Program-made: the position numbers and the translations under genes
Source of the DNA: Alphaproteobacteria bacterium
Lineage (GTDB): Bacteria > Pseudomonadota > Alphaproteobacteria > RF32 > CAG-239
Reading direction: 5' to 3'
Length of the DNA stretch: 64,000 nt
NCBI GenBank assembly: GCA_045577985.1
Contig: JAZNJJ010000025.1
Coordinates: 42,488 to 106,487, forward strand
Part shown: piece by piece, positions 4,248 to 48,461 of the stretch
How the letters are laid out: each line of letters opens with the position of its first letter
How positions within the stretch are numbered: the stretch's first letter is position 1
The notes under the pieces: model-generated
The model's database searches: none
The model's input: only the letters and a program-made list of their open reading frames with translations
What the model was told of the DNA's origin: nothing

Positions 4248-4991
4248 ATGAATACAACGAAAGAGTGGTTTTATGATTATGAGAATAAATGCGATTGTTC
4301 AGATGATGATCGTTGTGGTTGTACATATCCTAATAATATGAAAAGAAATTATAGTTATCATGATATAAATGTTAAACAAAATAATAGAATTCCTTATCAA
4401 AATAGAGTTTATGTAGGTGGAGTTGCTCCTGATTTTTCAGCTATGGCAATTATGCCTGATATGAGTGTAAATAAAAACTTTTGTTTCTTTAATTTTATTG
4501 ATTGTAAGTATGCTATTTTGTTTTTTTATCCGGCTGATTTTTCAAAAGTATGTCCTACTGAAATTATTGCTCTAAATAGAATGTATAAGGAATTTTGTAA
4601 ACGTAATGTAAAAGTTGTTGCAATCAGTGTAGATTCAATTTATTCCCATGTAGCTTGGAGAAAAATGGCAATATCTGATGGTGGAATTGGTGATATTAAT
4701 TTCCCATTGGTTTCGGATATAAATAAGGAGATAAGCTTTGATTATGGAGTTTTAACTCCTGATGGTGTTTCTCAAAGAGCAACGTTTATAATTGATGATA
4801 AATATGTTATTAGACATATATTGATAAATGACGTGCAGGTTAGACGCGAAGTATCTGAAACTCTTAAGATTATAGATGTTTTGCAGGCGGTAGATAAAAA
4901 TAATTCTGTTTGTATGGCTAATTGGTCTAATAATCAAAGTAATTTTTTTGTCAGTGCAGAAGGACAAGCTGAATATTTAAATCAGGATTAA
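4248..4991 (+). CDS. 2-Cys peroxiredoxin (AhpC/TSA) with Cys-rich N-terminal extension
   Basis: FFYPADFSKVCPTE peroxidatic motif, SVDSIYSH.AW, RATFIID, C-terminal VCMANW; GGAGG RBS before ATG 4248. Confidence 0.85.
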   Translation: MNTTKEWFYDYENKCDCSDDDRCGCTYPNNMKRNYSYHDINVKQNNRIPYQNRVYVGGVAPDFSAMAIMPDMSVNKNFCFFNFIDCKYAILFFYPADFSKVCPTEIIALNRMYKEFCKRNVKVVAISVDSIYSHVAWRKMAISDGGIGDINFPLVSDINKEISFDYGVLTPDGVSQRATFIIDDKYVIRHILINDVQVRREVSETLKIIDVLQAVDKNNSVCMANWSNNQSNFFVSAEGQAEYLNQD

Positions 4992-5074
4992 TTATAATAT
5001 TGTTAGTTTTTTTATATAAATTGTTTCTTTCCTCTTTTGTATTTGGTATAAAGTAACAAGAGGGGATTTTTTTT

Positions 5075-22769: not shown

Positions 22770-23381
22770 TTATTGGAAAACCCAAAATATTCCTCCATCA
22801 TTCGAACAAGTATCTACAGCTACATCAACAGGCATCGGGACAGAAATATTAGATCCTCCTGAACAAGCAATAGCATAACCATTACCTACTCCACCGGAGC
22901 AGTTTCCAAGAGCTTCTTCTTCATCAGGTTCAGCAGTAGACACTATAATCACTGAATTTAATCCAGTAGTATCACGACTCCCCCAATCTTGTGTAGCAAG
23001 CTCAATACATGCTTCTTCTGATGGAATTTGGGTAAGAATTGCAAAAAAGTCACCAAGCCCGGTTATATCAAACTCTCTACCCCAAGCATTAGTCATGCTA
23101 TATCCTGAACCAAACATTTCTTTAGGGGCTAAAACAGCTTTATATAAGATTCTTCCACTTAAATTACGATAATTTTTCTGTCTTTGCCTTCCATATAACA
23201 TTCTAACATTTTGAGAAATTTGCGTAATTTGATCGATTGTTTTATTAATTCTATATTTGGTCATCGCTTTCGAGTATCCTGCAATACCACCCACAGATAA
23301 TACACCGATAATAGCGAGTACTCCAAGCATTTCAATCATTGAACGACCATTTTGATTTGTGGTTCTACACATTTTATTCAT
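22770..23381 (-). CDS. type IV pilin-like protein (copy 1)
   Basis: Class III signal NG|RSMIEMLGVLAIIGVLSVGGIAGY, PilS-like body (MTNAWG, EEACIEL); AAGGAG RBS supports start at MNKM. Confidence 0.85.
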   Translation of the reverse strand: MNKMCRTTNQNGRSMIEMLGVLAIIGVLSVGGIAGYSKAMTKYRINKTIDQITQISQNVRMLYGRQRQKNYRNLSGRILYKAVLAPKEMFGSGYSMTNAWGREFDITGLGDFFAILTQIPSEEACIELATQDWGSRDTTGLNSVIIVSTAEPDEEEALGNCSGGVGNGYAIACSGGSNISVPMPVDVAVDTCSNDGGIFWVFQ

Positions 23382-23399
23382 TATTATTCTCCTTATCTT

Positions 23400-23431
23400 T
23401 GTCCGAAAAAAAGCATCCCTTTTTTCTGACA
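23400..23431. repeat. 32-bp palindrome, pilin-1 proximal copy (3 mismatches to consensus)
   Basis: TGTCCGAAAAAAAGCATCCCTTTTTTCTGACA. Confidence 0.9.
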
Positions 23432-23455
23432 CAAAATCTTAAATTTAGAAAAAAT

Positions 23456-23468
23456 TAACCTATTGATG
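23456..23468 (-). promoter_or_regulatory. IHF-like site between palindromes
   Basis: Minus strand CATCAATAGGTTA vs consensus WATCAANNNNTTR (1 mismatch). Confidence 0.5.
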
Positions 23469-23499
23469 TTACGTTATGAGGAGAACAAATTTTAATGAA

Positions 23500-23541
23500 A
23501 AAAATGTCCGAAAAAAGGGATCCCTTTTTTCGGACATTTTT
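23500..23541. repeat. perfect 42-bp palindrome, pilin-1 distal copy
   Basis: AAAAATGTCCGAAAAAAGGGATCCCTTTTTTCGGACATTTTT. Confidence 0.95.
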
Positions 23542-47054: not shown

Positions 47055-47687
47055 TTAATAGAATTTCCATCCTACTTGACCATTATTATTATCTGAACAA
47101 ATGTTAACAGCTACATCTACAGGCATAGGGATAGATACTACAGATCCTTGAGGGCAAGCAATTCCTGTCTGACTATCCCCGTTAATGCCAGAACATCCTA
47201 AATAAGTATTTTCATTATCAGATATACCATGAGCGGCAATGGCAACTAAGCCAGAATATGTATTACTACCCCAATCATGTGTTAATAATTCAATACATGC
47301 TTCTTCTGGTATTTTATTTAGTACAAACATGAAGTCTTTAGCATCACCATCAGTTTTAAGTCCAAATTGTCCGCCTAATACAACAAATTCTCCTCCAAAT
47401 GCATTGGTCATTTTATAGTCAGAATCTGTGTCTATAAATAATTCATCGGGAGCTAAATTAGCTTTTCTTATTACTTTATGGCTTAAACTTGCGTAATTTT
47501 TTTGTCTAGCATAAAGGGTGCGAATATTTTGAGAAAGTTGAGTAACATGATCAATAGTTTTATTAATTTTGAATTTCATCATTGCTTTCGAATAACCGGC
47601 AATTCCGCCTACAGATAATACACCGATAATCGCCAAAACTCCGAGCATTTCAATCATTGATCGGCCTGATTGGTTATTTTTATTCAT
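47055..47687 (-). CDS. type IV pilin-like protein (copy 2)
   Basis: SG|RSMIEMLGVLAIIGVLSVGGIAGY, MTNAFGG, EEACIEL, PMPVDVAV; AAGGAG RBS. Confidence 0.88.
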   Translation of the reverse strand: MNKNNQSGRSMIEMLGVLAIIGVLSVGGIAGYSKAMMKFKINKTIDHVTQLSQNIRTLYARQKNYASLSHKVIRKANLAPDELFIDTDSDYKMTNAFGGEFVVLGGQFGLKTDGDAKDFMFVLNKIPEEACIELLTHDWGSNTYSGLVAIAAHGISDNENTYLGCSGINGDSQTGIACPQGSVVSIPMPVDVAVNICSDNNNGQVGWKFY

Positions 47688-47701
47688 TATAAACTCCTTT
47701 C

Positions 47702-47739
47702 AAATGTCCGAAAAAAAGGATCCTTTTTTTCGGACATTT
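47702..47739. repeat. perfect 38-bp palindrome, pilin-2 proximal copy
   Basis: AAATGTCCGAAAAAAAGGATCCTTTTTTTCGGACATTT. Confidence 0.95.
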
Positions 47740-47760
47740 TTGGGAGGATAAATATTTTTT

Positions 47761-47773
47761 TAAGATATTGAAT
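47761..47773 (-). promoter_or_regulatory. IHF-like site between palindromes
   Basis: Minus strand ATTCAATATCTTA vs WATCAANNNNTTR (1 mismatch), same offset as in locus 1. Confidence 0.5.
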
Positions 47774-47810
47774 TTATGATAAAGGGTGAAAGAGAAAAAT
47801 AGTGAATTTG

Positions 47811-47842
47811 TGTCCGAAAAAAGGGATCCCTTTTTTCGGACA
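47811..47842. repeat. perfect 32-bp palindrome, pilin-2 distal copy
   Basis: TGTCCGAAAAAAGGGATCCCTTTTTTCGGACA. Confidence 0.95.
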
Positions 47843-47921
47843 TTTTAAATTTATTTGTTAACTAATCAGTCATAAATATGTTGTATATATAAAATGTATT
47901 TATCTGTAAGGAGTTTGGTTA

Positions 47922-48461
47922 ATGAAAAAAAGTTTCTTATTAATGGTTGTTTCTACAATGTTATTATCCTTGCGTGCAAATGCTGGAGAATATTATCCTT
48001 ATGTTGGTGCAGATTATGTAAATTCAACGGTAAATGTTTCTGATAGAATGCCTGATAATTATGATATCGGTAGATTAAGTGCAGGATTGAAGTTTGTAGA
48101 TTTTGGATCTGTGGAGGTTTTCGCAGAACGTTCAACAAAAGAAAAGAAAGAGTATAATTCTAATATATCTCGTGGGCGTTTTTATGGTTTTGGAGCAGAT
48201 GTTTTGTTAAATGTTTATAATCTAACAGATGCTACTATTTTAGGCTCCATAGGATACGGACGAATGTTTTCTAAATTAAAATATAATGGTAGTACAGACA
48301 AGGATATTGCTAATACTATACGTTTAGGAATTGGGGGTGAAATTAATCCTTCTCCGGAATGGGGATTTAGAGCGATGTATCGTTATTCTTTATCAGATGG
48401 AGATGATTATAAGAATGCTAAAGAATTTACGATTGGTGCAAGATATTATTTCTACTATTAA
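47922..48461 (+). CDS. small outer-membrane beta-barrel (OmpA/porin-like)
   Basis: Signal peptide, YPYVG, amphipathic strands, C-terminal IGARYYFY. Confidence 0.8.
   Translation: MKKSFLLMVVSTMLLSLRANAGEYYPYVGADYVNSTVNVSDRMPDNYDIGRLSAGLKFVDFGSVEVFAERSTKEKKEYNSNISRGRFYGFGADVLLNVYNLTDATILGSIGYGRMFSKLKYNGSTDKDIANTIRLGIGGEINPSPEWGFRAMYRYSLSDGDDYKNAKEFTIGARYYFYY

Follow-up and report, generated by a model that had tools for sequence, protein, structure and literature searches.

Paired palindromes upstream of type IVb-like pilin genes in a gut alphaproteobacterium as probable crossover sites of Mpi-type invertible switches

Contig JAZNJJ010000025.1 of the Alphaproteobacteria bacterium assembly GCA_045577985.1 carries, within the 64,000-nucleotide (nt) stretch analysed here (the window; C25:42488-106487 of the source genome G000, which comprises 1.54 Mb in 40 contigs at 31.6% G+C), two paralogous pilin genes that are each preceded by a pair of palindromic sites. 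The locus raises the question of what such pairs do, and of why the two copies upstream of the second gene (pilin 2) differ from one another by a change that is the same in both arms. The pairs are probably the crossover sites of invertible switches (invertons) of the Mpi type, situated upstream of pilin genes. This reading rests on observation, namely a genome-wide census of the site, the pairing of its copies, mirrored central dinucleotides, the occurrence of both segment orientations among paralogs, the recombinase family present and the architecture of comparable modules in relatives. That the segments continue to flip is something we infer from sequence.

Site pairs and their pilin genes

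The product of pilin 2 matched the Pfam families PilS_N (E=4.2e-10) and Bundlin (E=5.4e-9) above cut-off, with a weak match to N_methyl. PilS_N and Bundlin are type IVb pilin domains, and pilin 2 is type IVb-like. A total of 50 matches to it were found within the same genome; its paralog in the window, pilin 1, is 62% identical (E=4.4e-58; match at C25:65263-65847). The prepilin N-terminus (...GRSMIEMLGVLAIIGVLSV) is carried by the products of both genes, and pilus machinery is represented in the genome by three T2SSE ATPase matches and one prepilin peptidase, all above cut-off. Both genes lie on the minus strand with a site pair upstream, at a start-to-start spacing of 105-106 bp (Table 1). 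At pilin 2 the proximal site ends approximately 18 nt from the start codon with the Shine-Dalgarno sequence in between, and a GGAG-type element occupies the equivalent place in other modules, a module being a site pair together with the segment that it encloses. A 32-mer search of the window, allowing up to three mismatches, returned four matches, at 23400 (three mismatches), 23505 (none), 47705 (two) and 47811 (none); 100 dinucleotide-preserving shuffles of the window returned no match.

Table 1. Coordinates of the features discussed; positions are those of the window unless a contig is named.
Feature	Position	Strand	Description
Pilin 2	47055-47687	-	ORF (open reading frame); 210-amino acid type IVb-like prepilin, N-terminus ...SGRSMIEMLGVLAIIGVLSV
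Shine-Dalgarno sequence, pilin 2	47694-47699	-	AAGGAG, between proximal site and ATG; read from sequence
Proximal site (inverted repeat), pilin 2	47705-47736		TGTCCG-A7-GGATCC-T7-CGGACA; perfect 32-bp palindrome; H2/H2 arms (A7GG); centre AT at 47720/47721
Predicted invertible unit, pilin 2	47721-47826		106 bp between the two site centres; comprises both inner arms and the type II middle segment (74 bp), which lies in the majority ('rev') orientation; inferred
Core of middle segment, pilin 2	47768-47780	+	TTGAAT-T-TATGAT; possible -10/-35-like; points away from pilin 2; most conserved part of the 36-segment alignment
Terminator-like element, pilin 2	47810-47853	+	Distal site plus T-rich tail TTTAAATTTA; 15-pair stem; faces away from pilin
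Distal site (inverted repeat), pilin 2	47811-47842		TGTCCG-A6-GGGATCCC-T6-CGGACA; perfect 32-bp palindrome; H1/H1 arms (A6GGG); centre AT at 47826/47827
Pilin 1	22770-23381	-	Paralog of pilin 2; ATG at 23381
Proximal site, pilin 1	23400-23431		Degenerate; GC for GG beside centre, CTGAC for CGGAC in inner arm; GATC lost
Middle segment, pilin 1	23432-23504		Type I, majority ('rev') orientation
Core, pilin 1	23463-23479	+	TTGATG-T-TACGTTATGA; points away from pilin 1
Distal site, pilin 1	23505-23536		Perfect H1/H1 palindrome; with T-run, terminator-like on + strand
Mpi-family recombinase 1	C28:47715-48416		234 amino acids; NF009949 above cut-off
Mpi-family recombinase 2	C28:69375-69959 (L018)		226 amino acids; NF009949 above cut-off

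Each site consists of two arms of the form GTCCG-A6-7-G2-3, inverted around a central dinucleotide to yield a palindrome of 30-32 bp, and the arms occur in two variants, H1 (A6GGG) and H2 (A7GG). The initial annotation had described the two copies at pilin 2 as perfect 32-bp palindromes that differ as A7-GGATCC-T7 and A6-GGGATCCC-T6, and the proximal copy at pilin 1 as bearing three asymmetric mismatches with loss of GATC; both descriptions are accurate. The hairpins of the pilin-2 palindromes are extended by flanking A/T runs. The pilin-1 proximal copy, which reads ...AAGCATCCC...CTGACA, differs at only two positions from a hybrid A7GG/CCCT6 form that is common elsewhere in the genome.

From the symmetric difference at pilin 2 it had been proposed that symmetry itself is maintained, either by selection for a hairpin, a cruciform or a dimer site or by template switching from arm to arm. 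Classification of 70 sites across the genome gave 22 H1/H1, 10 H2/H2 and 38 mixed, and the two arms of a site were not associated (Fisher test: p=0.13 when restricted to AT-centred sites, p=0.46 over the full set; rough values since the copies are paralogs). The half-site variants thus assort freely, with 38 of the 70 sites asymmetric, and symmetry as such is therefore not maintained. The contrast between A7-GGATCC-T7 and A6-GGGATCCC-T6 reads as a combination of two tolerated half-site variants rather than a maintained symmetric change, and neither cruciform extrusion nor arm-to-arm template switching is required by anything observed. What survives of the proposal is the dimer site, as two inverted arms around a central dinucleotide are the anatomy of a serine-recombinase crossover site. 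The outer distal arm is H1 in 35 of 36 modules and the remainder of both arms is likewise constant; the H2/H2 form A7-GGATCC-T7 (10 copies) marks modules of a single segment type, type II.

A census of the whole genome, with up to four substitutions allowed, returned 76 sites in 39 groups, and a control with the reversed pattern returned no matches. The groups comprise 36 pairs with a spacing of 105 bp (23), 106 bp (12) or 107 bp (1), one further pair spaced by 185 bp and two solo sites. Of 40 ORFs with a conserved pilin N-terminus, 32 have a pair no more than 420 nt upstream, two have a solo site, three lie at contig ends with less than 100 nt of upstream sequence and three have neither. A 33rd module-linked pilin is truncated by the end of contig C27. 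Genes for GT2-type glycosyltransferases adjoin two further modules, C28:163440 (163440-163576) and C2:4795 (4795-5009), the latter lying between the glycosyltransferase gene and rimP-nusA. This C2 module is the one with 185-bp spacing; its second site is degenerate, its core faces rimP and it may be a locked switch. No match to the site was returned by a scan of metagenome contigs (JGI, Joint Genome Institute) with a degenerate 30-mer.

The two pilin genes with a solo site (C17:16284 and C28:93286) retain it in the proximal position, with neither a distal partner nor a homologous segment upstream, and may be remnants of deletion or rearrangement. Contig C24 stops at a site centre and overlaps the start of C39 (C39:1-130) with the same tRNA-side flank; the outer arms differ, with GTCCG on C24 against GTACG on C39, where both sites carry GTACG on the left arm, and this difference may represent heterogeneity or a contig-end error. 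At pilin 1 an in-frame GTG extension (23381-23432, minus strand) runs through the degenerate proximal site (MSEKRDAFFRT...). The palindrome translates as MSEKRD.FFRT on either strand, which is probably coincidental, and a small ORF through the palindrome was dropped as a candidate because its Shine-Dalgarno-like GAGGAG is present in only some modules.

Of the 72 sites in the 36 modules, 54 have AT as their central dinucleotide. Centres of TT occur in nine distal sites, and each of these is paired with an AA-centred proximal site (9/9 mirrored). Serine recombinases make a 2-bp staggered cut, and variation that is limited to the two central bases and mirrored between partners is what such a cut requires.

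Segment orientation and recombinases

The segments between sites measure 75-76 bp and fall into three sequence types (I, II and III) on alignment of 36 middle segments. Each type is found among the paralogs in both orientations relative to the adjacent pilin gene. The segment of C14:17069 is identical at 75 of 75 positions to the reverse complement of that of C5:31581, against 56% on the same strand, and the segment of C12:31662 is 93% identical to those of C24:139686 and C39:97 only when inverted. Between C23:57692 and C23:74526, identity is 97% for the segments when inverted and 99% over the 100 nt that follow the module downstream. Inverted segments amid matching flanks place the breakpoints inside the sites. 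In C12:31662, the only type II module that is inverted, the segment has carried its inner H2 arm with it, as expected of strand exchange in the middle of the site.

The conserved core of the segment points toward the gene in four of the 33 pilin-linked modules (C12:31662, C14:17069, C23:74526 and C28:144303) and away from it in the other 29, which include both window modules. The computed tally of orientations placed C5:59 and C28:163440 under arbitrary orientations; the core of C28:163440 faces its glycosyltransferase gene. The initial annotation had also supposed that the two window loci may be in different or locked states. They are not in different ones, since both modules share one orientation, whereas a lock is conceivable at pilin 1, where a proximal site that is degenerate beside the centre and in the inner arm may leave the module impaired. 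The damage is recent, because the pilin-1 segment is identical at 75 of 75 positions to that of C16:6600; it is also 96% identical to that of C14:17069 when inverted.

One contig bears on the coexistence of both orientations. Contig C5 begins (C5:1-260) with a perfect 58-nt fold-back around a module, in the order flank (reverse complement), site, segment, site, flank, so that one flank is joined via a site to both ends of the segment. This structure is expected if both orientations occurred in the reads, and is suggestive. Public runs for the source numbered 20 in seven studies, all in the form of Logan contigs assembled at k=31 and none of those listed from RNA, and four of these (X1, X3, X4 and X5) were aligned to C28:91000-104000 (L057), where one site has unique 31-mers. 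The run contigs ended at or near the sites of this locus, no strand-changing joint was present among the joints listed, and the alignment is neutral as to orientation and heterogeneity. The 31-mers that perfect sites have in common recur 18-41 times across the genome, and contigs assembled at k=31 break at modules because of the 30-32-bp repeats; for annotation, this explains the assembly breaks at pilin genes in these genomes.

The genome contains three small serine recombinases and four tyrosine-recombinase matches, two of the latter (approximately 300 amino acids) being presumably of Xer type. Two of the serine recombinases scored 291.6 and 291.1 bits against NF009949 (an NCBIfam equivalog, 'master DNA invertase Mpi family serine-type recombinase'; cut-off 272) and the third scored 37 bits. 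The Mpi-family pair possess Pfam Resolvase and HTH domains, and one or both of them, though unlinked to the modules, are most likely the enzyme acting on the sites. Relatives of the enzyme are encoded by metagenome-assembled genomes of gut Alphaproteobacteria (58-71% identity) and by many Bacteroidota (approximately 60%). Recombinase 2 lies between a terminase-large-subunit-like ORF (439 amino acids) and a GT2 glycosyltransferase gene, these neighbours being named by eye.

Homologs of the pilin were found in all 50 genomes of the genus that were searched, with between 5 and at least 63 scored matches each. The exact site was not found in the 40 relatives searched, four of which gave weak matches with 1-3 mismatches, and it appears to be species-specific. 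Sites of the same design, with the core A6-CG-NN-CG-T6, occur in 11 other genomes. The pairs recovered there are 139-155 bp apart, and asymmetric centres are mirrored (AC...GT or GT...AC) in 11 of 12. Such modules lie upstream of pilins at L080, L175 and L176, and in G063 the orientation of module L165 with respect to its gene is opposite to that of its paralogs L163, L164 and L166. Others lie between divergently oriented paralogous genes for secreted proteins, which have a signal peptide and a CFLPDS.DCG motif in common, at L074, L075, L078, L079 and L081 (G022, G050, G012, G057 and G060); this arrangement resembles a toggle from one gene to the other more than simple ON/OFF switching. In G053 (L077) and G041 (L072) an orthologous recombinase gene (61-64% identity) lies directly downstream of the module and diverges from a second conserved gene. 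Orthologs of the 234-amino acid enzyme with at least 64% identity are present in 14 of 49 other genomes, where pilin matches number from 11 to at least 63. They occur in 8 of the 11 genomes with the site pattern and in 6 of the 38 without it, a co-occurrence taken as a lead only because kin are not independent.

Three further features of relatives were observed. At L168 (G051:C4:15400-16600) the two outer flanks of a mid-contig module nearly form reverse complements, and neither contains a gene start; the module may be the product of recombination between sites of different modules. CT dinucleotide repeats at pilin-like genes, placed either immediately upstream or in the 5' portion of the gene (L038, L044 and L045 in G065, G057 and G019) resemble those of slipped-strand phase variation, which would be a second switching mechanism in the genus. 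A conserved leader of approximately 200 nt (ggatag.cgatagtctgtctggggtg...ggctggaagg...) precedes some pilins in several species (L030, L032, L035, L036, L039, L040 and L050); it had no Rfam match at gathering score at the four loci searched and is possibly an undescribed cis-regulatory RNA.

The inversions might be real but rare events that arise through RecA recombination between the 30-bp repeats, or through a tyrosine recombinase, rather than through an Mpi-family enzyme. The recombinase genes of G000 are indeed unlinked to the modules, the four tyrosine-recombinase matches provide candidates, and for a comparable family in Mycoplasma penetrans the candidate enzymes are tyrosine recombinases (PMC2268961). 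However, variation that is confined to the central dinucleotide between conserved arms, across species, fits a 2-bp staggered serine cut, and in two relatives modules abut Mpi-family genes. Rare inversion of this kind is accordingly judged unlikely.

Hairpins, promoter-like cores and competing explanations

The cores of the three segment types read TTGATG-T-TACGTTATGA (type I), TTGAAT-T-TATGAT (type II) and TTGATT-T-TATTATGA (type III). In type III and in C28:163440, TTGAAA/TTGCAA is found 16 nt upstream of TATTAT/TATGAT, and the segments of relatives include a perfect TATAAT (G063 family) and TTGTCA-17-TATTTT facing the pilin (L175). Because of these -35/-10-like elements here and in relatives, the conserved core is taken, loosely, as a possible promoter firing along the strand on which the motif reads forward.

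A mechanism can be proposed on this basis. Each 30-32-bp palindrome would serve as the crossover site for a serine-recombinase dimer, with strands exchanged at the central dinucleotide, and recombination between the distal and proximal sites would flip the approximately 106 bp between their centres, that is, the inner arms and the 75-76-bp segment. With the core toward the pilin, a transcript would read through the proximal hairpin (-22 kcal/mol) into the Shine-Dalgarno sequence and ATG. With the core outward, it would meet the distal hairpin and its T-run, and the outward promoter would be insulated because the distal site is terminator-like. Both window pilins would thus be OFF in the assembled consensus, and the segment orientation in a reference genome would be a snapshot of the population. 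One or both Mpi-family 'master invertases' would act globally on approximately 36 switches, and the outcome would be independent ON/OFF phase variation of approximately 33 pilin paralogs and at least one glycosyltransferase gene. An outer-membrane beta-barrel gene at 47922-48461 on the plus strand (Pfam OMP_b-brl, E=4.5e-15) is divergent from pilin 2, and the core of the pilin-2 segment presently points toward it with the terminator-like distal site intervening.

The distal sites of both window modules were called terminator-like on the plus strand, away from the pilins. At least five T residues in the eight positions after the hairpin were present outward of the distal site in 25 of 36 modules, and toward the gene from the proximal site in one of 36. 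The features of an intrinsic terminator, a G+C-containing hairpin followed by a T-run, are hence present in outward-facing distal sites and lacking from gene-facing proximal sites. Predicted RNA folds of the window sites reached -21.7 and -22.0 kcal/mol (pilin 2), -25.5 kcal/mol (pilin 1, distal) and -12.7 kcal/mol (pilin 1, degenerate proximal), with z-scores of -3.1 to -7.2. A search of the window module against Rfam yielded only hairpin-like microRNA matches, at 20-31 bits against gathering scores of 41-120.

The strength of these hairpins (-21.7 to -25.5 kcal/mol), the terminator-like distal site and its outward T-rich tails in 25 of 36 modules would suit a function at the RNA level only, in which terminators or attenuators insulate the pilins from their neighbours with no rearrangement of DNA. 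Such a function seems improbable as the whole explanation, given that the proximal hairpin lacks a gene-ward T-run in 35 of 36 modules, that no Rfam family was matched and that the pairing, the mirrored centres and the inverted segments are left unexplained. As a secondary function of the distal site, an RNA role can be compatible with a switch.

Perfect dyad symmetry, the constant spacing of 105-106 bp and a fixed place beside the Shine-Dalgarno sequence are also what a pair of operators would display, bound by a dimeric regulator that controls the pilin promoter by looping over approximately 10 helical turns, with the inverted segments being accidental. This is slightly less probable again. 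It does not account for segments that are 93-100% identical only when inverted, for mirrored centres or for the travelling inner arm, nor for the spacing of 139-155 bp in relatives, and the genome offers a matching recombinase family but no identified candidate for the regulator. Helical phasing was considered in its own right, 105-106 bp being approximately 10 turns, yet it is not claimed because relatives have a spacing of 139-155 bp. Least credible of all is a 135-bp mobile element resembling a miniature inverted-repeat transposable element, with 30-bp terminal inverted repeats and inserted in either orientation, which would suit the many copies (39 groups), the terminal repeats and both orientations but not the constant placement with respect to the pilin start codon at 32 loci, the flanking direct repeats of at least 3 nt at only 2 of 36 modules (approximately chance in AT-rich DNA) or the lack of copies beyond promoter-proximal positions, the modules looking as if duplicated along with the gene.

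Several points weigh against Mpi-type invertible switches. As to promoter activity, no canonical sigma-70 promoter was called in either window module, and a lenient promoter scan scored the strands alike (means of 9.32 and 9.29), the motif-forward strand being ahead in 7 of 36 modules and behind in 10 of 36; the ON and OFF assignments are guesses. As to inversion, both orientations are seen among paralogs rather than at a single locus within one population, and the fold-back of C5 might have arisen during assembly had a short k been chosen. The mirrored centres (9/9 and 11/12) are not independent events, as paralogs share ancestry, and the pair at L176 is unmirrored (GT...GT), with a degenerate second site. 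Most sites have a symmetric AT centre, which alone gives no polarity, and 105 bp is very short for the synapsis of two sites. As to the enzyme, no module adjoins either Mpi-family gene in G000, and in other genomes only 1 of 80 loci that encode related recombinases had a site of such a design within 2.5 kb, so that a general adjacency of recombinase and site was rejected.

A more far-reaching reading, a combinatorial 'pilin switchboard', is offered tentatively and is doubtful when all of its parts are held jointly. Approximately 33 major-pilin paralogs would each be toggled independently by an inversion of approximately 106 bp; these inversions would rank with the shortest ascribed to any serine invertase, and would form the densest inverton set per megabase. 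The invertases look as though acquired from the same family as those of Bacteroidota (approximately 60% identity). Since symmetric AT crossovers carry no polarity, a short loop bent by A-tracts would have to impose inversion over deletion. In the OFF state, the distal repeat would serve additionally as a terminator and shield the adjacent genes. Finally, the same site family would switch glycosyltransferases and, in relatives, divergent secreted-protein paralogs, besides sitting upstream of a recombinase gene.

Comparison with known inversion systems

Systems of the Hin/hix, Gin/gix, Cin and Pin kind combine a serine recombinase with imperfectly palindromic, inverted crossover sites whose central dinucleotide sets polarity. 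They invert one linked segment of approximately 1-3 kb with a Fis-bound enhancer inside. The putative switches described here share with this group the serine recombinase, palindromic sites arranged as inverted repeats and a polarity-setting centre, and differ from it in their 75-bp segments and dispersed loci. No enhancer is evident, though no search for Fis or an enhancer was made, and a segment of 75 bp would seem to leave no room for the classical enhancer arrangement.

Among pilus and fimbria systems, fimS of Escherichia coli type 1 fimbriae is a single locus inverted by the tyrosine recombinases FimB and FimE, and Piv of Moraxella and the R64 shufflon (Rci) invert coding segments, not promoters. 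The pilin modules resemble all three in that DNA inversion would control the expression or type of a pilus or fimbria. To our knowledge, however, none of these systems has a separate switch on each of dozens of pilin genes, and we know of no description of an independent ON/OFF choice among dozens of paralogs for type IV pilin families. Literature on invertible promoters and pilin phase variation, and on invertons of RF32 and gut Alphaproteobacteria, yielded nothing describing this system, inverton catalogues and supplements being outside the scope of the search. If the switches are active, an uncultured-type gut alphaproteobacterium would turn dozens of pilins ON or OFF independently of one another and thereby vary the surface of its pili, a strategy comparable to that of Bacteroides capsules and Mycoplasma lipoproteins. 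With fully palindromic sites and a total length of 135 bp, they would also provide a highly compact natural switch, useful for examining the choice between inversion and deletion at short distance.

The closest parallels are found in Mycoplasma penetrans and Bacteroides fragilis. Compared with the modules described here, the repeats of the M. penetrans mpl switches are much shorter, and Bacteroides invertible regions are roughly twice as long. The mpl (P35) family comprises approximately 38 paralogous surface-protein genes, most with their own adjacent invertible promoter and switched independently (PMC2268961, citing Horino 2003). The likeness lies in one switch for each paralog of a large surface-protein family in a small genome, and the difference in Xer-like tyrosine recombinase candidates and lipoproteins there against pilins here (PMC2268961).

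For B. fragilis, PMC4747536 describes Mpi as an unlinked enzyme responsible for inverting 13 dispersed regions, among them seven capsular-polysaccharide promoters. The two systems would agree in an unlinked 'master' serine invertase and in its targets, many short, scattered segments that are flanked by inverted repeats, carry a promoter (a putative one here) and lie upstream of genes for surface structures. Inverted repeats between promoter and gene are reported there to lower transcription (PMC4747536), and in this respect resemble the proximal hairpin here; the title of a paper in the reference list of PMC11602134 likens the B. fragilis repeats to hin repeats. The present system differs in its host, a gut alphaproteobacterium, in its targets, approximately 33 type IVb-like pilin paralogs, and in its number, approximately 36 switches in 1.54 Mb, and each repeat is a near-perfect palindrome of 30-32 bp with only 75-76 bp between repeats. 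If the reading as Mpi-type switches is true, the Mpi 'master invertase' regulon would extend beyond Bacteroidota. What would be new relative to known inverton regulons of the Mpi kind is the lineage, the pilin targets, the number of switches and palindromic repeats lying 75-76 bp apart.

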